A stretch of 24,161 nucleotides of DNA, taken from the NCBI GenBank assembly GCA_019911985.1, contig JAIOJO010000067.1, positions 1 to 24,161 of the forward strand, written 5' to 3'. The translations under genes were made by a program, and so were the position numbers. Position 1 is the first letter of the stretch. Each line of letters opens with the position of its first letter. This DNA is from Sulfuricellaceae bacterium. GTDB lineage: Bacteria; Pseudomonadota; Gammaproteobacteria; Burkholderiales; UBA9220. Below the pieces are notes generated by a model, which was given only the letters and a program-made list of their open reading frames with translations, did no database searches and was not told where the DNA came from. Positions 7,699 through 15,340 of this stretch are shown here, in pieces.

Positions 7699-7774
7699 GC
7701 CGGCATAGCTCAGTTGGTAGAGCAGCTGATTTGTAATCAGAAGGTCGAGGGTTCGATTCCTTTTGCCGGCACCA
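7699..7774 (+). tRNA. tRNA-Thr(TGT)
   Basis: 76-nt cloverleaf: acceptor GCCGGCA/TGCCGGC, D arm, anticodon loop TT-TGT-AA, TTCGATT T-loop, encoded CCA. Confidence 0.97.
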
Positions 7775-7775
7775 A
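7756..7775 (+). repeat. attL core (tRNA 3' end)
   Basis: Direct repeat partner of 15280-15298. Confidence 0.88.
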
Positions 7776-7800
7776 ATAACATTCCAAGCAGTACCGAAAT

Positions 7801-7842
7801 AGGCCGCAAACCACGATAAACAGAGGGTTTGCGGCCTTTTTT
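7801..7842 (+). terminator. Element-supplied terminator downstream of the tRNA
   Basis: 12-bp stem AGGCCGCAAACC/GGTTTGCGGCCT followed by a T run. Confidence 0.75.
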
Positions 7843-7873
7843 ACGTCCTAACCAGTCCGAACCGGGCCTATTG

Positions 7874-7946
7874 ATACCCCCGAAACATGGGGGTATATTC
7901 TGGGGTACATCACATGCCAATGTGATTTACAGAAGGATATACCCCC
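7874..7946. repeat. Left cluster of GGGGGTAT motifs (probable integrase arm sites)
   Basis: ATACCCCC 7874-7881, GGGGGTAT 7889-7896, TGGGGTAC 7901-7908, ATACCCCC 7939-7946; matched by a pair at the right end. Confidence 0.65.
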
Positions 7947-7949
7947 ACC

Positions 7950-9188
7950 ATGGCACTTAAAGACCTGGAAATACGCAACGCCAAGCCACTCGATAAGCCC
8001 TATAAGCTCGCAGACAGTGGGGGTATGTACCTTGAAATCAGGCCCAACGGCTCGAAGTATTGGCGCCTGAAATACCGCTTCGGAGGAAAAGAGAAGCTGC
8101 TGGCGCTGGGGGTATATTCAGCACCAGGGCGCCCAGCTTCCGAAGCCGTCACATTGACCGAGGCGCGCAAGCGGATGGCCGAGGCCAAGAAACAGATTCG
8201 GGACGGCATAGACCCCTCCCACCAGCGCAAGGTGGAGAAGATCACCAAGACACAGAACACAGCAAACACCTTTGAAGGCGTGGCCGATGAATGGCTGGAA
8301 AAGTTCGGCGTCAAGAAAGCAGCGTCAACCATGGAGAAAACCCGCTTTATCCTCCGGCGTGATGTGTTCCCGTGGCTGGGGGCGCTACCCATTGCGGAAA
8401 TCAAGCCTTCCGACCTACTGGCAGTCCTGCAAAGGATTGAAAGCCGTGGCGCCCTGGAGACTGCCCACCGTGCGAAGCAATACGCTGGGCAGATATTCCG
8501 CTACGCCGTGGGCACCAAGCGAGCCGAGCGGGATATAACGCAAGACCTCAAGGGCTCACTGCCCGCCCCCAACGTGAAGCACCGAGCAGCCATTACCGAC
8601 CCCGTAAAGTTCGGTGAACTGATCCGCGCCATTGATGGCTTCAATGGAACATTCACGGTCAAGTGTGCCTTGAAGTTGGCACCTCTGATCTTTGTGCGCC
8701 CCGGCGAGCTGCGACAGACGGAATGGTCCTGGGTGGATATGGACGCCGCGACGATCTGCTACCCAGCTTCCGTGATGAAAATGCGAGAGGATCACATAGT
8801 CCCGCTATCCAACCAGGCGCTTGAAATCCTGCGAGAGATTCAGCCGCTTACCGGGCGCGGCAAGTATGTATTCCCCAGCATCCGAACCGGAGAACAACCC
8901 ATGAGCGAGGCGTCGATTAACGCGGCACTTCGGCGCCTTGGGTACGACAAGACGGAAATGACCGGCCACGGATTCAGGGCAGCCGCCAGGACGATCATGG
9001 ATGAGGTGCTGGGCTTCCGTGTTGACCTGATAGAGCATCAGCTCGCCCATGCCGTCAAAGACCCCAACGGACGGGCCTACAACCGCACGGCGCACCTTCC
9101 CCAACGGAGGGAAATGATGCAAGGCTGGGCAGATTATATTGACGGGCTGGCGAGCGGCGCGAAGGTGTTGCCGTTCAAGGCTGCGTAG
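7950..9188 (+). CDS. int: P4-family tyrosine integrase with N-terminal arm-binding domain
   Basis: KPYKLADSGGMYLEI..NGSKYWRLKYRFGGKEKLLALG N-domain; catalytic R (VRPGE), HGFR, QLAH and AYNR all intact. Confidence 0.97.
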   Translation: MALKDLEIRNAKPLDKPYKLADSGGMYLEIRPNGSKYWRLKYRFGGKEKLLALGVYSAPGRPASEAVTLTEARKRMAEAKKQIRDGIDPSHQRKVEKITKTQNTANTFEGVADEWLEKFGVKKAASTMEKTRFILRRDVFPWLGALPIAEIKPSDLLAVLQRIESRGALETAHRAKQYAGQIFRYAVGTKRAERDITQDLKGSLPAPNVKHRAAITDPVKFGELIRAIDGFNGTFTVKCALKLAPLIFVRPGELRQTEWSWVDMDAATICYPASVMKMREDHIVPLSNQALEILREIQPLTGRGKYVFPSIRTGEQPMSEASINAALRRLGYDKTEMTGHGFRAAARTIMDEVLGFRVDLIEHQLAHAVKDPNGRAYNRTAHLPQRREMMQGWADYIDGLASGAKVLPFKAA

Positions 9189-9287
9189 GAGCATCACCGC
9201 CGCCTGACGGTTTCAGGTAAAAGCGGCGGCAAGGGTGCGTGAACACCCGAACCGCCTGACCATAACGCAACTGCAAGGAGTTACATC

Positions 9288-9371
9288 ATGGCTACCGCCG
9301 ATTCTACATCACGCAACATCGCCGCATCGCAAAGCACGGACCGCGAAGTCAAGAAAGGAGGTGCGGAATGA
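9288..9371 (+). CDS. Putative 27-aa leader peptide (MATADSTSRNIAASQSTDREVKKGGAE)
   Basis: AAGGAG RBS before ATG 9288; TGA overlaps the ATG of the next ORF (ATGA). Too short for the supplied ORF track. Confidence 0.5.
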   Translation: MATADSTSRNIAASQSTDREVKKGGAE

Positions 9372-9715
9372 GCGGCGAAAATCCTTATTTTTCACACGGC
9401 ATAGAATTTTCTGGCCTTTGTCACAACCTGCAAAACCAGCCGCCAGAATGGGCTGGTGGCTTATTTACAAAAGAATATGACCCTCTTCGGCTTATTGCGA
9501 TTGAACGGCAAGCTGACAATATCGAACAATCGGCGCTTTCGGGTGCTAAGGCTGTTGGAGAACTTCTGGCTGTTGCCATTCGAACCGGCGAGCTGGACAA
9601 GAACACGATTGAAAGTGCCGGCTGGCTGATTAAGTTTCTTGCTGATCTTGCACAAGAAACCGGAGTTATTTCTTCAAGCGCCAGACATACTGTTGAACAT
9701 GGCGCATTAATCTGA
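9368..9715 (+). CDS. Hypothetical element protein (115 aa)
   Basis: AAGGAGG RBS upstream; co-oriented with the element; helical C-terminal half; no family recognised. Confidence 0.7.
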   Translation: MSGENPYFSHGIEFSGLCHNLQNQPPEWAGGLFTKEYDPLRLIAIERQADNIEQSALSGAKAVGELLAVAIRTGELDKNTIESAGWLIKFLADLAQETGVISSSARHTVEHGALI

Positions 9716-9722
9716 CCGTTTT

Positions 9723-9787
9723 GCCGCGCCTAGCCCGAGGCTGATCCCCGAGGGCGAAAACCGGGCACCTTCACCCGGCGGCGCGGC
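9723..9787 (+). ncRNA. Candidate cloverleaf regulatory RNA (c4/CI-like)
   Basis: 8-bp closing stem GCCGCGCC/GGCGCGGC enclosing two hairpins, in an intergenic gap. Function inferred only. Confidence 0.4.
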
Positions 9788-9822
9788 TCCTGATTGAAGG
9801 CTGCACTTTGAAGGGGTGTGAA

Positions 9823-10296
9823 ATGCCGAGACTAGATATTTCACCTGAGATCGAATCAGAACAACTTGATTATTTTCGAACAACGTTCGAGATGATGACG
9901 GGAAATAGCCGCGTAAGTGCATTATTTGGCGCAATCAGGTTTTGTGGAAATCAGGAAATACCCATGCCGCAATGGGTTGTAAATGCTTTTTACTCTGCAA
10001 CCAACGAGTGGCTTGGTATGCGTGCCTGTAGTCTTGATGAATCCTTTGGAGCGAAACCACGCACCATAAAAAGAATGGCTCAAATGAAGCTGAGAAGCTT
10101 GGCTTTTCATAAAGTGCAGATTGCTGCTAGAGCAGCAAAACAACATGGCAATTCAATTAACATTTCCTTTTTCGATGAACTGAGCGAAAAGATTGGGCTG
10201 GGCAAAACGGCACTTCAAGAACTGTATTACGGCAAAAGAAACAGAAAACCCCTAACCCGCGAAAAATCAAAAAAACGCGGGATTACTAAAAAATAA
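9823..10296 (+). CDS. Hypothetical AT-rich protein (157 aa) with possible C-terminal HTH
   Basis: AAGGGG RBS before ATG 9823; FFDELSEKIGLGKTALQELYY resembles an HTH; basic tail. Confidence 0.7.
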   Translation: MPRLDISPEIESEQLDYFRTTFEMMTGNSRVSALFGAIRFCGNQEIPMPQWVVNAFYSATNEWLGMRACSLDESFGAKPRTIKRMAQMKLRSLAFHKVQIAARAAKQHGNSINISFFDELSEKIGLGKTALQELYYGKRNRKPLTREKSKKRGITKK

Positions 10297-10363
10297 CAAA
10301 CATTCATGCTTGCCGCCATGAGCTTATCCAGTCCCGGATGGGCCGTACCGAAAGGACGAAATC

Positions 10364-10606
10364 ATGGCAGCCCAACTTGCAGAACTCAACACCCAGCGCC
10401 TCACCATCCTTCGCCGTCGAGAAGTTGAACGGCGCACCGGACTTTCCAGAACGTCCCTGTATGAACGCATTGCAGCCGGAACCTTTCCGCGCCCTGTAAA
10501 TCTTGGCGGAGGGCAGAGTGTTGGCTGGTATGAACACGAAGTAGAAACGTGGATTTCCAGCCTCCCCCGTGCCCGTGCGGGCGAACGCGCCGAATCCGCC
10601 AAGTAA
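10364..10606 (+). CDS. alpA: AlpA-family regulator / recombination directionality factor
   Basis: ILRRREVERRTGLSRTSLYERIAAGTFPRPVNLG..SVGWYEHEVETWI is the AlpA pattern. Confidence 0.95.
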   Translation: MAAQLAELNTQRLTILRRREVERRTGLSRTSLYERIAAGTFPRPVNLGGGQSVGWYEHEVETWISSLPRARAGERAESAK

Positions 10607-10616
10607 GGCGGGCGCA

Positions 10617-10820
10617 ATGAAAAATCACTCCAAAACCAACTACAGAAACGTTCCTGGCGGCAGCGGACTAAACCCTAACACCCGAGGGCCAATGATTCCC
10701 GTTGCGCTTGAGGACTTGCTAACCAGCGGCTCCCGTACCCAACGCCGTTGGGCATCAAAAGAGCTGCGCAAGTTGTCCCGCGAGAAGGTGAAAGCGAGTA
10801 GCGAAGGGAGCGCGGCATGA
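10617..10820 (+). CDS. Small basic hypothetical protein (67 aa)
   Basis: Fills the alpA-primase gap; stop overlaps the primase ATG (ATGA). Confidence 0.55.
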   Translation: MKNHSKTNYRNVPGGSGLNPNTRGPMIPVALEDLLTSGSRTQRRWASKELRKLSREKVKASSEGSAA

Positions 10821-11647
10821 TTAGCTTCGAGCGTAAGTTTCTTGATGCTCTCCGATCTGCCGGACTGGAGCCAGTGAAGGCCGACATTGACGCTGATGGC
10901 GTATTGCACCGTTACCGAGTAACGGGCGACAAGGCAGGCAGCATGAACGGCTGGTACGTGCTCCACGCTTCCCCTGTTCCTGCTGGCGCTTTCGGCTCCT
11001 GGAAAACAGGCGAAACTCACTCCTGGCGTGATGATGTAACCAGGACTGCCACCCCGGCAGAGCGTGCCGAGTTGCAGCGACAAATGCAGGCCATGAAAGC
11101 GGCGCGTGCCGAGGAGGAAAGGCGCGTGCGGGATGCTGCCAGAGCCAAGGCCGCCAAGCTGTGGCTGATGGCCAAGCCTGCACCGGGCGATCATCCCTAC
11201 CTGGCGCGAAAGCGGGTCAAGGCATGGGGTCTGCGGCAGTTGAACAACATGCTGTTGATCCCGGCTCGCGATGCCGCCGGGCAGCTCCATACCCTGCAAT
11301 TCATCGGCGCTGATGGCAACAAGCGGTTCCTGACAGGCGGGCGCATTCAGGGCTGCTATTACGCAATTGGACGGGTTCGCGGCGCGGTGCTGGTGGCAGA
11401 GGGCTATGCCACGGCAGCAAGCATATTTGAGGCGTCTGGCCATGCCGTGGCGGTGGCCTTCAACGCCGGGAACCTGGAGCCAGTGGCGCGTGCAATACGT
11501 TCAAAATTCCCAAAATTGCACATTGTCATTTGCGCCGATGATGACACGGCGACACCCGGCAACCCCGGACTGACCAAAGCGACCGAGGCGGCACGCGCTG
11601 TGCATGGCTGGGTGGCAAAGCCTGATTTCAGCGGGGTGGCGGCATGA
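10817..11647 (+). CDS. Toprim-domain DNA primase (TraC/P4-alpha-like, no zinc finger seen)
   Basis: LQFIGADGNKRFL.GG, VAEGYATA, VAFNAGNL and ICADDD Toprim motifs. Confidence 0.9.
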   Translation: MISFERKFLDALRSAGLEPVKADIDADGVLHRYRVTGDKAGSMNGWYVLHASPVPAGAFGSWKTGETHSWRDDVTRTATPAERAELQRQMQAMKAARAEEERRVRDAARAKAAKLWLMAKPAPGDHPYLARKRVKAWGLRQLNNMLLIPARDAAGQLHTLQFIGADGNKRFLTGGRIQGCYYAIGRVRGAVLVAEGYATAASIFEASGHAVAVAFNAGNLEPVARAIRSKFPKLHIVICADDDTATPGNPGLTKATEAARAVHGWVAKPDFSGVAA

Positions 11648-13212
11648 GCGCCGTCATGACTGATTTTAATGACCTGGCGCTTGCTGCTGGCCCTGATGTG
11701 CTGCTTCAGCAGTTGGGCAAGGCGAAGCCAGCAACGCCACTCAATAACCCGGCTGAATGGCCTGATCCGCTGCTCCCCGGCAAGATCAACGTTCCCGACA
11801 TTCCAACGTCCATTCTCCCTAGCTGGGCTGGCGCGATGGCGCAGGCGGTGGCGGATAGTACCCAAACCAGCCCCACGCTGGCGGTGATGCTGACCCTTTC
11901 CGTTCTTGCCACTGTGCTGCAACGCCGCTTCGAGGTGGCCCCATATGGCGCTGATGATGACTACAGCGAGCCGTTGGCGGTATGGACCTTAACCGGGCTG
12001 GGCAGCGGGAACCGCAAGACGGCGGTAATCAATTCCCTCGCCGCCCCGCTGGTGTATTGGGAGAAGTTGGAGCGCGACCGTATGCGGTCCGAGATTGCAC
12101 GGGTAACAGCGGCGCGGGCGGTGGGAAAGAAGCGTATCGAGAAACTGCTCAAGGACGCCAGCAACGCGGACAACGACGATTCCAGAGCACGGATTCAGGC
12201 GCAGATTCAGCAGGAGGAGGAAGCCATGCCAGCCGAGGTTAGAGCGCCACGGCTTTACACCGGGGACTGCACGGCGGAGCGTTTGCAAGGGCTGCTGGTA
12301 GAACAGGGCGAACGCATGGCGGTTTTGTCTGATGAGTCTGGCATATTCCTGATTATGGCCGGCATCTACTCGGGCGGCATTGCCAACCTGGATGTATTCC
12401 TACAGGGACATGCCGGGACGCCCATGCGCGTGGATCGTGCCGAGCGATCCGCCCATATCGACAAGCCCGCCTTGTCCTTCGGCCTGGCGCTGCAACCCGG
12501 CGTGATGGCTGACGTGGCCAGCTCACGGCGCTTTCGGGATAGCGGCCTGCTGGCGCGATTCCTGTTCGCCATGCCTGAATCAAACGTGGGCAAGCGTGAC
12601 GTGCGGAGGCGCGTGACGATCCCCGAGCATGTCCGGGCGGCTTACGCGCGCGGTCTGTTCGCCCTGCTGGAACAGCGCCCTGCAGTACCAGGAAACCCAA
12701 GGATCATTCCATTTACTGAACAGGCGCTTGATTGCTGGATAGATTTCGCTGAGGAGATCGAGACCCAGCAGGGCGAGGGCGGAAAGCTGGAAGGGATTGC
12801 CGATTGGTCATCAAAGTTACCCGGTGCGGCGGCGCGGGTTTCGGCGCTGCTGGAGTTGGCAGAAGTGGGCCTGCACGCCGAAAGCGTAAGTCACCAGTCA
12901 GTGGCGCGGGCGGTGGAGTTGGGCGGCCTGCTGATCCCACACGCTCAGGCGGCATTCGGCCTGCTGGGTGCGGACGCTACTGAGGCAGACGCCAGCGCCA
13001 TTGTGAAGTGGCTACGCGAGAACAGCAGCGGTTACTTCAAGCGCAGTACATGCCAGAAGGCGATGGAGGGGCGATTCCGTACCGTGGACAAGCTCAAGAA
13101 GGCGCTGGATAGACTGGTCCAGTGTGATGTGCTCAGAGAGGAAAAGCTACCAAACAAAGGTGCACCGCCAAGCATTTGCTATCGAGTCAATCCGAAGTGT
13201 CTGTCTACATGA
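11644..13212 (+). CDS. DUF3987/YfjI-family replication (helicase-like) protein
   Basis: Degenerate P-loop GLGSGNRKT, TAERL, VLSDE, SGLLARFLF, winged-helix-like C-terminus; coupled to the primase by ATGA. Confidence 0.85.
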   Translation: MSAVMTDFNDLALAAGPDVLLQQLGKAKPATPLNNPAEWPDPLLPGKINVPDIPTSILPSWAGAMAQAVADSTQTSPTLAVMLTLSVLATVLQRRFEVAPYGADDDYSEPLAVWTLTGLGSGNRKTAVINSLAAPLVYWEKLERDRMRSEIARVTAARAVGKKRIEKLLKDASNADNDDSRARIQAQIQQEEEAMPAEVRAPRLYTGDCTAERLQGLLVEQGERMAVLSDESGIFLIMAGIYSGGIANLDVFLQGHAGTPMRVDRAERSAHIDKPALSFGLALQPGVMADVASSRRFRDSGLLARFLFAMPESNVGKRDVRRRVTIPEHVRAAYARGLFALLEQRPAVPGNPRIIPFTEQALDCWIDFAEEIETQQGEGGKLEGIADWSSKLPGAAARVSALLELAEVGLHAESVSHQSVARAVELGGLLIPHAQAAFGLLGADATEADASAIVKWLRENSSGYFKRSTCQKAMEGRFRTVDKLKKALDRLVQCDVLREEKLPNKGAPPSICYRVNPKCLST

Positions 13213-13229
13213 TCGAGTTATTCGCCATA

Positions 13230-13377
13230 AAGCTTATTTAAGACTATTTATATTTAATATCAATTACATAGTGAGATAGAGCATGACACCCAATCGAAAA
13301 AGTCGAATAAGTCGAAGAAGCCAAATAAATCAACCAGGGCCATTTTTCGGTAATTCGACTTTTTCGACTTATTCGAT
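13230..13377. repeat. AT-rich tract plus inverted 9-bp iteron-like arrays (putative ori)
   Basis: TCGAAAAAG/TCGAATAAG/TCGAAGAAG tandem at 13294-13320; reverse-complement copies at 13359-13376. Confidence 0.65.
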
Positions 13378-13420
13378 AGGGGTTAGTCGCCGGGATAGGG
13401 AGGTGCGAATAGTACCCATA

Positions 13421-13508
13421 GGGGGTGTAAATCCCTGGAGCGCAAAGCCTATAGACCGGCTGTGTAGTCATATTTTTGCGTGCGCGAGTTTAGTGGGGGG
13501 GGTATCCC
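13421..13508 (+). other. cos-like packaging signal candidate
   Basis: GGGGG...ACCG...GTCA-TA-TTTTT-GCGTGCGCGAG...G8 layout, resembling cos regions of HK97-like phages (recalled, not aligned). Confidence 0.4.
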
Positions 13509-13545
13509 GTGGAGAAAGTCATCAATTCCAATGATTGGAGGTTTT

Positions 13546-13812
13546 ATGAGTACCTGTTTGAAGTGCGGTTTACCCATTGAAGGGCAGGCTGAGACCGGAA
13601 GGCCGAAGTCCTATTGCTCTGTTGGATGTAGGCGATCGGCAGAGCATGAAGTGAGGCGCATCAATTCGCTGCTTCAAAAACTTGAGACTGATCTGAGCAA
13701 TGCTTTGCTGGGCCGTGTATGGGCCGACCAGGTTCCCAAGATCGAGGCCGAGATTTCACGACAAGAAACGCGGTTGCGGATTCTGCTTGATACCGATGAA
13801 TTTGAAAAATAA
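13546..13812 (+). CDS. Hypothetical zinc-finger/coiled-coil protein (88 aa)
   Basis: GGAGG RBS; CxxC...CxxxC (CLKC, CSVGC) followed by an amphipathic helix. Confidence 0.75.
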   Translation: MSTCLKCGLPIEGQAETGRPKSYCSVGCRRSAEHEVRRINSLLQKLETDLSNALLGRVWADQVPKIEAEISRQETRLRILLDTDEFEK

Positions 13813-13887
13813 TTTTCACCACCAAGGCGACATGGGCCGCCCTGGATGGATTATTTAGCCCACAACAACCAAAAAGGAATGCAAAAA

Positions 13888-14169
13888 ATGTTAGGACAAT
13901 CACTACTTATCGACGGCGCATTGGCCGGGGCAATTTCAGATGCAAGCCAGGTTAGCGTTTTAGGCCTGGGCATCAAATCCGCGCTGACCGGCTCTTTAAC
14001 TATCACTGGAATGGCAAACACGGATGGCTCACCGGCAACCTGGACGATTGCGCCGGGAGGTTCTGGCGCTTATTCGCCGCCCGCTGCTGGTCTCGCAAGT
14101 CACCTGAGTTATGCCCTGAGCAGTGCCGCAGACTTGGGAAAAGTGTTTATCGCATTCCGCCCAATTTAA
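13888..14169 (+). CDS. Hypothetical small Gly/Ser/Ala/Thr-rich, beta-strand-like protein (93 aa)
   Basis: AAGGA RBS suits ATG 13888 (alternative 13879); alternating hydrophobic pattern. Confidence 0.65.
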   Translation: MLGQSLLIDGALAGAISDASQVSVLGLGIKSALTGSLTITGMANTDGSPATWTIAPGGSGAYSPPAAGLASHLSYALSSAADLGKVFIAFRPI

Positions 14170-14183
14170 CAAAGGAAAATATT

Positions 14184-14921
14184 ATGCAATTAGCAAACCT
14201 GATTAAAAATCTGAAACTCGGCCCCGATGCCCGCGAAGAACTTGATCGCGTACTGGCGCTACCAGAGGTGGAAGCGATCCTCTCTCGTGAGGAGCATAAA
14301 ACCATCGCTCACCGCCGCGAACTGATGAAGAAGTTGGCAGGCGTGCCAGGGCGTCACTCGAAGTCGATTGAAATCGCCAACCGGAAACTGGCAGAAGCCC
14401 ACCACCTGGCCGAAAAACTGGAAGCCGAACTCATCGAGGCGAAGGCCGCGCACCGCATGGCCGGAATGCTCGCCGATGGCGCGAAACGCGAACAGGAAAA
14501 CGAGCAGGCCGAACTGGTCGCGGAACTTCACGCCGGGAGAGATCGCCGTCTGGATGATCTGTATTTGGCCTTGGACAAGCTCGCCGACCAGGCGCGCGGG
14601 CTGGTGCGAATCTGGCCTCAAACTTACAAAAGTCCACTTGGCTCCCGTGAGGTGCGTTACGTCGGTAACTCTGTCGAGGTGGAAGATGCCCGCAGTTCCA
14701 TACTCGCGGCTCAGCGCAAACTGGAGGCTTTCGCCCTTGGATCAATGACCCGGCAGGAAATCACTGACAGTATGGCGGAAATCTGCGCCAATCTGGTCAA
14801 GCCGCTGGATGCGCTGGACTTGGTGGCACCTTCCATTGATGAAAGTGGCGCAGTAACACAACCCAAAGTCAAAACGGGGGTTGATCTTACGTCCAAACGC
14901 ATCGAGGAGGCCGCCGCATGA
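14184..14921 (+). CDS. Hypothetical coiled-coil protein (245 aa)
   Basis: AAGGA RBS; long E/A/K/L-rich heptad-like N-terminal half; stop overlaps the next ATG. Confidence 0.8.
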   Translation: MQLANLIKNLKLGPDAREELDRVLALPEVEAILSREEHKTIAHRRELMKKLAGVPGRHSKSIEIANRKLAEAHHLAEKLEAELIEAKAAHRMAGMLADGAKREQENEQAELVAELHAGRDRRLDDLYLALDKLADQARGLVRIWPQTYKSPLGSREVRYVGNSVEVEDARSSILAAQRKLEAFALGSMTRQEITDSMAEICANLVKPLDALDLVAPSIDESGAVTQPKVKTGVDLTSKRIEEAAA

Positions 14922-15121
14922 GTCGAGATTTCGAAATTTCGCACAAGAGCGCCTGCGATGCCCTTGGGCTTCAAGCAAATGCACTTGCTTGTATCCCTTT
15001 GGCGTACAGGATAAACCCAGACGGCAGCCGGGTTTCCTGGGCAGCCGACATTGCGCGGCATTTGCGATTGAAGTACCCAGCCCGCGCCTTGGCGAAGATG
15101 AGTTTGAGCCTAACCAAGTAA
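14918..15121 (+). CDS. Hypothetical protein (67 aa)
   Basis: GAGGAGG upstream, ATGA coupling with the previous gene, followed by a hairpin and T run. Confidence 0.55.
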   Translation: MSRDFEISHKSACDALGLQANALACIPLAYRINPDGSRVSWAADIARHLRLKYPARALAKMSLSLTK

Positions 15122-15143
15122 ATCCAAGCACCCACCAACTGAC

Positions 15144-15165
15144 CCGGCCTTTGCGCCGGCTTTTT
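15144..15165 (+). terminator. Weak terminator after the last element gene
   Basis: CCGGC/GCCGG stem followed by CTTTTT. Confidence 0.45.
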
Positions 15166-15202
15166 CATTTTCCAACTAAACAAGGGGTAGCAAAATGAAA
15201 GT

Positions 15203-15222
15203 GGGGGTATATTTGGGGGTAT
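15203..15222 (+). repeat. Right pair of GGGGGTAT motifs (probable integrase arm sites)
   Basis: GGGGGTAT at 15203-15210 and 15215-15222; 12-bp period, same as the left pair. Confidence 0.65.
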
Positions 15223-15279
15223 AAATTGGGCAAAATATTTTTGCATCTAAGCCTATGGCTGTTCTCAGGCAATTATTTC

Positions 15280-15298
15280 ATTCCTTTTGCCGCACCAA
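15280..15298 (+). repeat. attR core (displaced, damaged tRNA 3' fragment)
   Basis: 19 of 20 nt match to 7756-7775 with one G missing. Confidence 0.85.
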
Positions 15299-15305
15299 CA
15301 TCATC

Positions 15306-15340
15306 AAATGGCTTACCGGAAATCCGGTAAGCCATTTTTT
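15306..15340 (+). terminator. Strong terminator, probably the original tRNA terminator displaced by integration
   Basis: AAATGGCTTACCGGA/TCCGGTAAGCCATTT perfect inverted repeat plus T run, 7 bp after attR. Confidence 0.85.

Follow-up and report, generated by a model that had tools for sequence, protein, structure and literature searches.

Among the described phage satellites, the closest counterparts of the element studied here carry an integrase, an AlpA regulator and a primase. In EcCICFT073, a phage-inducible chromosomal island (PICI), AlpA is the helper-induced activator, transfer depends on cos and on terS, and the DNA travels in full-size heads (PMC6092414). In the PICMIs (phage-inducible chromosomal minimalist islands), int, alpA and prim suffice, and the DNA is packaged as concatemers (PMC10803314). 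Most known satellites come from Enterobacteria, Vibrio and Firmicutes. We analysed a 24,161-nt contig of a Sulfuricellaceae bacterium (JAIOJO010000067.1, assembly GCA_019911985.1); the whole 24-kb contig is referred to as the window. It contains a discrete 7.5-kb insert (7756-15298) whose ends are a repeat of the 3' end of tRNA-Thr (19 of 20 nt). This island is probably a cos-type phage satellite of the PICI/PICMI/P4-like kind, which would excise, replicate itself and be cut and packaged at cos by the terminase of a helper phage. Its host is an autotrophic, RuBisCO-bearing bacterium, and the satellite most likely represents a subtype not yet described.

All genes of the island lie on the + strand, in the order int, small open reading frames (ORFs), alpA, primase, DUF3987 gene, a repeat-rich block and four further ORFs; the first-pass annotation had read this order from the letters, and the ORF list, Pfam and PHROGs confirm it. 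That annotation had also recognised no capsid, terminase, HNH or Sid/Psu/Delta gene, and searches of the window with Pfam, PHROGs, NCBIfam and PADLOC likewise detected none of these and no defence gene, PADLOC being negative on every ORF. In the same four resources, no conjugation or relaxase gene was found among the window's ORFs, and the right-hand and other uncharacterised ORFs had no match beyond weak PHROG ones. No virion or lysis gene was recognised in the element, and blastn of the whole element against phages gave matches limited to the integrase and short stretches of the primase.

We compared this content with the models of the described classes. In SatelliteFinder, the P4-like model comprises int, psu, delta, sid, alpA, epsilon and alpha, of which at most two may be missing, and the PICI model requires at least four of five core components (PMC10085698). 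The window has three of the seven P4-like components (int, alpA and primase), without a psu-delta-sid operon or epsilon, and the same three of the five PICI components, without a TerS, HNH or capsid-related match. It contains no portal, protease, capsid, head-tail adaptor, terS or terL gene as in the capsid-forming PICIs (cf-PICIs); genes of the latter type occur in some relatives (portal, S49 protease or gp10-like), with no capsid gene recognised. The PICMI core of int, alpA and a DUF3987/DUF5906 primase is present, but the hallmark named by the PICMI authors, insertion directly downstream of fis, is not: the island occupies tRNA-Thr, and PICMI hosts are Vibrionaceae. A PICI in the functional sense (Fillol-Salom 2018) is induced by a helper, replicates by its own means and is packaged specifically in phage particles; of this, the window shows the sequence prerequisites (att, int, alpA, a replicon and cos). 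The island also has an int-alpA RNA above the gathering threshold and a cos that is HK97-type by homology and by HNH-terS placement. In our reading, the element is a minimal satellite that combines an HK97-type cos with a conserved module so far unnamed, and by gene content it lies outside the P4-like, PICI and cf-PICI models. The suggestion of an unclassified satellite finds support.

The cos-like site noticed at first pass proved to be the most informative feature of the island. In the window, the motif consists of G5, a few bases, AAATCCCT, N17, GACCGG, N35 and G8TA. G7-G9 runs are otherwise absent from the island sequences and recur in related islands with alignable surroundings. HK97 offers a counterpart: the last ~50 nt of its genome, which read G10, ATCAAATCTTC, 18 nt, GACCGC and 7 nt up to the physical terminus, align with the motif's left half (nhmmer E 1e-4). 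Run on the junction of the HK97 end and start, the motif model gave a match that stops 5 nt before the terminus. The cos of HK97 lies between the HNH gene gp74 and terS, and its terminase cuts with the help of gp74 (PMC11331095). The alignment with the HK97 terminus predicts a cut in the window at ~13460-13480. We also considered the motif as an RNA gene and rejected this, as there was no Rfam match, consensus structure or covariation.

The same motif recurs in phages and prophages of many phyla. A scan of IMG/VR with a pattern of only three blocks (ATCYCT, GACCGG and G7) yielded 14 matches, versus 0 for the reversed pattern that served as control, and the upstream G-run, which is outside the search pattern, was present in all 14. 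In four phage-sized contigs (L025, L027, L028 and L035), the motif is followed closely, in the same orientation, by terS (phrog_83/Terminase_4), terL (phrog_9) and portal (phrog_12). About half of the 55 matches in a scan of GTDB genomes were bona fide by the same extra features; at 11 of these genome loci the order was an HK97-gp74-like HNH gene, the motif, (a ParB-methyltransferase), TerS and TerL. In two INPHARED phages, the motif comes right after the HNH gene. The model further found copies on which it had not been trained, directly upstream of TerS in the islands L012 (E 2.6e-6) and L011. Based on its position between HNH and terS in phages, the alignment to the HK97 terminus and the lack of RNA features, we take the motif to be a true homologue of the HK97-type cos region. 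The island appears to carry one copy of the packaging signal of HK97-like phages, namely those with a P27-family TerS, a phrog_9 TerL and a gp74-like HNH protein.

Other islands share this signal. The motif is conserved in the island relatives L005, L006, L007, L013 and L015, and it occurs in the nine loci with the 245-aa gene described below that have enough sequence. At L060, L068, L072, L073 and L096, window-like int, alpA, primase or DUF3987 genes adjoin the motif with no 245-aa gene within 8 kb. Because of these five loci, the cos-bearing int-alpA-primase islands appear to be a wider set than the 245-aa family. At L072 (4940-5109), from a Burkholderiales metagenome-assembled genome (MAG), two tandem cos motifs ~100 nt apart lie beside a window-like integrase (46% identical), and L005, L006 and L013 have a second partial copy of the motif or a G-run unit. 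The cos consensus (G-run, AAATCTCT, N17-18, GACCGG, N34-36 and G7-9) is found at L039 4001-4094, L040 4001-4094 and L043-L097 (~28 loci). Its conservation at the DNA level extends over phages and prophages of Pseudomonadota, Bacillota, Chloroflexota, Acidobacteriota and others, a breadth unusual for a packaging site.

The gene that immediately follows cos in Bacillota phages belongs to phrog_2308 (helix-turn-helix and Zn-ribbons), as at L039 4286-4765, L040 4228-4719, L056 1853-2161 (-) and L080 815-1192. The 88-aa Zn-ribbon ORF of the window occupies the same post-cos place and matches phrog_2308 weakly; it may be a binder of the cos region, a candidate we advance as a tentative lead. The start of this ORF, placed at 13480 at first pass, is most likely 13546, which has GGAGG upstream.

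The island also appears to possess a replicon of its own, made up of the Toprim primase, the DUF3987 helicase-like protein and iterons just downstream. The element TCGAANAAG is present in five clustered copies at 13294-13376, versus 0.7 expected in the whole window, in keeping with the ori-like site noticed at first pass. Iterons beside an initiator gene have the usual look of an origin, and we infer that this block is a putative one. The primase and DUF3987 genes overlap by ATGA (11644-11660 region). In relatives the two are arranged in several ways, including fusions: one 834-aa protein in L006 and ~990-aa proteins in L060 and L073. The split therefore reads as one natural arrangement among several rather than as damage.

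The integration module is complete by sequence, with a P4-type integrase, core repeats and arm repeats flanking the future attP. The island sits in tRNA-Thr between sspB and cbbR. On its left are cytochrome bc1 genes, sspA, sspB and the tRNA gene, and on its right are cbbR, form I RuBisCO, cbbQ, cbbO and an aldolase-Dabb gene. Because form I RuBisCO and cbb genes flank the island, its autotroph setting is real. The att repeats seen at tRNA-Thr at first pass were recovered: the two cores are identical over 13 + 6 bases, and a single G is absent from attR. The displaced tRNA end is followed by a perfect 15-bp hairpin terminator (15306-15337), and the second repeat and hairpin together look as expected of a displaced tRNA 3' end. 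The 11-nt TGGGGGTATAT occurs in six copies in the window, where 0.08 would be expected, and every copy lies at one or the other end of the insert; an inverted repeat, I1, lies within the left cluster. If the island were circular, the six copies would lie on both sides of the core, as arm sites do for P4-type integrases. The record of P4 itself annotates arm-type repeats likewise.

Table 1. Positions of the island's features and of its integration target in the window
Feature	Position	Strand	Evidence or remark
tRNA-Thr(TGT), integration target, 3' end = attL	7699..7774	+	ARAGORN; Rfam tRNA 70.9 bits
attL core, 20 nt (last 20 nt of tRNA)	7756..7775	+	direct repeat with 15280-15298
Left arm-type repeat cluster TGGGGGTATAT, around int promoter and start	7888..8117	.	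copies at 7888, 7937 (inverted), 8018 and 8107
P4-type tyrosine integrase, 412 aa	7950..9188	+	Pfam Arm-DNA-bind_3, Phage_int_M, Phage_integrase; phrog_1 E 2e-58
115-aa ORF, no assigned function	9368..9715	+	weak PHROG matches only
int-alpA RNA (Rfam RF02996), directly 5' of next ORF	9723..9800	+	61.8 bits vs gathering 35.8, E 2.5e-11
~160-aa ORF (ATG 9823), conserved post-int gene	9808..10296	+	homologues in same place in L010 and L013; ESM Atlas 0.95 to unnamed clusters
AlpA-family regulator/excisionase, 80 aa	10364..10606	+	PF05930 E 7e-16; phrog_2790
Small ORF in alpA-primase gap, likely ATG 10617, 67 aa	10569..10820	+	ORF list; no family match
Toprim primase, 276 aa	10817..11647	+	Toprim_3/4; phrog_2249 E 3e-70; 61% identical to L005, 55% to L007
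DUF3987 helicase-like replication protein, 522 aa	11644..13212	+	PF13148 E 9e-94; phrog_2373 'DNA helicase' E 2e-51
Non-coding block, ~330 nt	13213-13545		
Iteron block, putative origin	13294..13376	.	3 direct + 2 inverted TCGAANAAG after AT-rich tract
HK97-type cos motif, ~100 nt	13412..13511	+	model R1 63.5 bits; single copy in genome
Zn-ribbon + coiled-coil ORF, 88 aa, in the place of terS of phages	13546..13812	+	CxxC...CxxxC; weak phrog_13372 (E 8e-4), phrog_2308 (E 0.02)
93-aa ORF, all-beta sandwich	13888..14169	+	77-78% identical in L002 and L003; AlphaFold2 (AF2) predicted local distance difference test (pLDDT) 89
245-aa helical protein, marker of element group	14184..14921	+	210 cluster representatives at E<=1e-3
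67-aa ORF, partner of 245-aa gene	14918..15121	+	homologues directly 3' of 245-aa gene in L002, L003, L015 and L010
Terminator-like hairpin at end of right-hand operon	15144..15166	+	
Right arm-type repeat cluster, 2 copies	15202..15224	+	copies at 15202 and 15214
attR core, 19 nt, one G fewer than attL	15280..15298	+	displaced tRNA terminator after it

Between int and alpA, a 'cloverleaf' seen at first pass turned out to be a known Rfam family, the int-alpA RNA. This RNA is also present in relatives (L013 5027-5092, L014 3515-3579 and L015 3064-3143), always directly 5' of, and co-oriented with, the first post-int ORF (157-249 aa), which is homologous at least among the window, L010 and L013. 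The constant co-oriented position suggests that the RNA is a 5' leader or cis-regulator of this ORF, not a free-standing small RNA. Further upstream, between int and the 115-aa ORF (9224-9295), there was a sub-threshold Rfam match to an R1162-like plasmid antisense RNA (40.4 bits versus gathering 55, E 2.4e-4). A possible 27-aa ORF with a good ribosome-binding site (9289-9372) overlaps this match.

The right arm of the island is characterised by the gene for the 245-aa protein. In a word-indexed search, this protein had two close homologues only. By contrast, a profile search of 1.84 billion representatives gave 210 at E<=1e-3, nearly all of 230-270 aa; the named members are from Burkholderia gladioli and Ralstonia mojiangensis. 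None of 80 members matched Pfam or PHROGs, and tblastn found no match in 50,697 phage records. The family was likewise absent from 60 relatives and 400 genomes of the same class (460 species representatives), an IMG/VR pattern search was empty, and a metagenome scan led to one locus. In all 13 contexts, a small island's replication genes are followed closely by the 245-aa gene. These replication genes vary (Toprim + DUF3987, PriCT_2-Toprim-AAA_25 or Toprim-DUF927), most of the islands have int and alpA, and four adjoin a tRNA.

The synteny of the right-hand ORFs, a check that the first-pass annotation had proposed, is conserved. The trio of 93-, 245- and 67-aa genes occurs in two contigs, L002 and L003, with the 93-aa ORF preceding the 245-aa gene, and the 245 + 67 pair occurs in two more. 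The right arm of L002 is 64-78% identical to that of the window. This closest relative has an HNH gene (37.8 bits) and TerS (Terminase_4, 29.3 bits), and for that reason the wider group seems to overlap PICI-like designs, a caveat to the unclassified reading. TerS is also encoded in L011 and L012, and S49 protease in L005, L006, L010, L011 and L013; L005 further has a portal gene and L013 a gp10-like one. Proteins resembling tape measures (731-1243 aa, lowest PHROG E 1e-57) are encoded at L005 11727-13922, L007 8036-10288, L010 5571-9302 (-), L011 10856-13627 and L013 11626-14025; such a protein stands beside S49 protease in related int-primase islands of 13-15 kb. No major capsid, large terminase or full virion gene set was recognised in any relative with the 245-aa gene. 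A second minimal element, L015, spans ~8 kb and consists of int, small ORFs, a gene for a 555-aa protein, the 245-aa and 67-aa genes and cos. C4 antisense RNA (RF01695, of the clan of P4 CI-like immunity RNAs) was located at L011 5161-5251, L014 11140-11224 and L015 5005-5087, and Rfam gave none in the window even at E<=1.

Structure prediction describes the 245-aa protein as largely helical with long helices (AF2 pLDDT 73), without a Foldseek match in the PDB or BFVD. For the confidently modelled beta sandwich of the 93-aa ORF, there were only weak matches to nucleoplasmin-core-like folds (E 2e-3), which are not diagnostic. As a module of helper interaction or regulation, the 93-245-67 trio is the leading candidate.

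By analogy with EcCICFT073, PICMI and P4, the cycle of the satellite would run as follows. An HK97-type helper phage would induce alpA, and Int, with or without AlpA, would excise the island. With the iterons as origin, the primase and DUF3987 protein would then copy it into concatemers. The satellite cos would be recognised and cut by the terminase of the helper together with its HNH protein, and the DNA would be moved into helper capsids. Either full-size heads would take up multimers, as is the case for EcCICFT073 and PICMI, or the heads would be remodelled; the packaged form would probably be a multimer of ~5 units per full-size head. The conserved right-hand genes, that is, the Zn-ribbon ORF beside cos and the trio, would serve as the module for exploiting the helper.

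A more far-reaching proposal, which we hold tentatively and consider possible rather than probable, is that the window element represents, in its minimal form, a group of satellites not described before. This group would be defined by the 245-aa protein and the HK97-type cos, its larger members having their own tape-measure and S49 head protease, and the trio would be a new helper-hijacking device unrelated to Sid, CpmAB, Rpp and Ccm. Alternatively, the island could be a satellite in which the trio is cargo, such as an unrecognised anti-phage or interference system, rather than a device for exploiting virions. We regard this as somewhat unlikely. The trio does move between replication modules, being 61-78% identical in L002 and L003 although their primase/DUF3987 genes have diverged. 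Variable defence cargo is found downstream of the primase in P4-like satellites and PICMIs (PMC10803314), and the trio has no structural homology to virion proteins. However, PADLOC returned nothing, and apart from the replication genes none is as constant over the 13 contexts as the 245-aa gene. It also usually heads a block with S49 protease, tape measure or TerS, and in both respects it is unlike hot-spot cargo.

A second question is whether the island still moves. Right-half pieces 96-99.5% identical to it occur in a landfill metagenome. In a groundwater run (X5), a 2.6-kb contig is ~97% identical over int and the 115-aa ORF (window 7767-9800) and diverges after 9800; the left arm appears to be exchanged as a module. 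This near-identity points to recent spread and modular exchange. In X3, one odd contig linked 10274 to 15841; we considered it unreliable and did not take it as evidence of excision.

Several observations weigh against the satellite reading. The attR core has lost 1 nt, and attR shows more mismatches to attL on its left side. No attB or attP joint was present among the assembled contigs of the source run, which drop rare forms, and the depth over the element in these contigs equals that of the flanks (~5-6). The MAG (600 contigs, 86% complete) contained no Terminase_4, phrog_9 TerL or second copy of cos; the helper may be unbinned, exogenous or virulent. No unoccupied site was found for comparison, as the nearest genomes belong to a different genus and are too distant (CbbR ~58% identical, with cbbR adjoining tRNA-Leu). 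The spacing from the cut to the T-tract differs from that in HK97, and cosN and cosB are for this reason placed no more precisely than above. Finally, the 245-aa family has no detectable link to known hijacking proteins.

The first of these points, namely the state of attR, the depth without junction contigs and the missing helper, would also suit a one-time satellite, since immobilised and in decay, its parts recognisable but neither excised nor transferred. We consider this unlikely. None of the 11-12 ORFs is broken, and their starts overlap or lie close together; the arm repeats, the iterons and cos are intact as well. A 13-nt identical core suffices for many tyrosine integrases. The near-identical segments come from unrelated samples, which speaks for recent movement.

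It is more doubtful still that the 245-aa protein is Sid/CpmB-like and makes the helper build small capsids fitting one 7.5-kb genome. The sizes are alike (245 aa versus 244 aa for Sid), both the long helices and a weak feature lead in the ESM Atlas to Psu clusters (0.86, 17/100 matches) would agree with it, and this lead stayed unsupported. Alignment of the 80-member profile with P4 Sid and Psu in hhalign gave a probability of <1%, none of the 80 members matched PF07455 and Foldseek was empty, so we rejected homology to Sid or Psu. Moreover, by a rough estimate in which head volume was scaled with the T number, a 7.5-kb genome falls short of even a T=3 head. That the island is instead a phage-independent, self-replicating integrative element, whose motif is a replication or regulatory site that happens to be common with phages, is very improbable: the motif does lie just 3' of primase/DUF3987 in the window, L005, L068, L096 and L073, a possible place for an origin, but in phages its place is precisely the boundary HNH|terS, in HK97 it coincides with the physical end of the genome and in TerS-bearing islands it abuts TerS, and the window has a separate iteron block as origin and no gene for conjugation or a relaxase.

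If the satellite reading is true, it would widen the known range of satellites, adding environmental chemolithoautotrophs as hosts and, in Gram-negative bacteria, HK97-like phages as helpers. With ~11 genes and one cos of ~100 nt, the island is a very small system in which to study what a minimal satellite needs. The short cos pattern separated true sites from chance matches across phyla, and it flags both candidate helpers (prophages with HNH-cos-terS) and candidate satellites (int-alpA-primase islands with cos). Elements as minimal as these escape protein-based tools such as SatelliteFinder. For a new function in helper interaction, the 245-aa family offers a concrete candidate.

The use of an HNH-dependent cos has a parallel in Gram-positive bacteria. 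SaPIbov5 and other cos-type Staphylococcus aureus pathogenicity islands (SaPIs), the subject of work by Quiles-Puchalt et al. in 2014, reportedly exploit HNH-dependent cos phages by carrying the helper's cos. Unlike the island, these SaPIs have an Stl repressor and a Ccm capsid homologue, and no AlpA or DUF3987. With P4, the island shares a P4-type integrase with arm repeats, AlpA/Vis, a Toprim primase-helicase with an iteron origin and a cos in common with the helper. It differs from P4 in having no Sid, Psu, Delta, epsilon or C4-like RNA, P4-like C4/CI-like antisense RNAs being found in relatives and not in the window, and in a helper type that would be HK97-like, not P2-like.

The PICMIs (Barcia-Cruz et al. 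2024, PMC10803314) resemble the island in their minimalist size (6-7 kb), in int, alpA and a DUF3987-type primase, in having no recognisable capsid-remodelling genes and in the few small uncharacterised genes 3' of the primase. Unlike them, the island lies in the tRNA-Thr of a RuBisCO-bearing host, apparently a betaproteobacterium as judged from the cos subtype and the named relatives, and has a recognisable cos and the conserved 245-aa marker gene. Relative to the cos-type PICI EcCICFT073 (Fillol-Salom et al. 2018, PMC6092414; 2019, PMC6739421), the island has an HK97-type cos, for HNH-dependent terminases, rather than a lambda-type one. It has no detected Rpp or capsid-morphogenesis homologue, its primase and helicase are two genes, it measures 7.5 kb against a 9.5-kb median, and its right arm is an unrelated, unnamed gene set. 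PICIs of the EcCICFT073 type can be packed as multimers in full-size heads, as the island probably would be. The two designs have further points in common: both lack terminase and virion genes, and both have int at one end, an AlpA activator, their own pri-rep with an adjacent origin and a helper-type cos.

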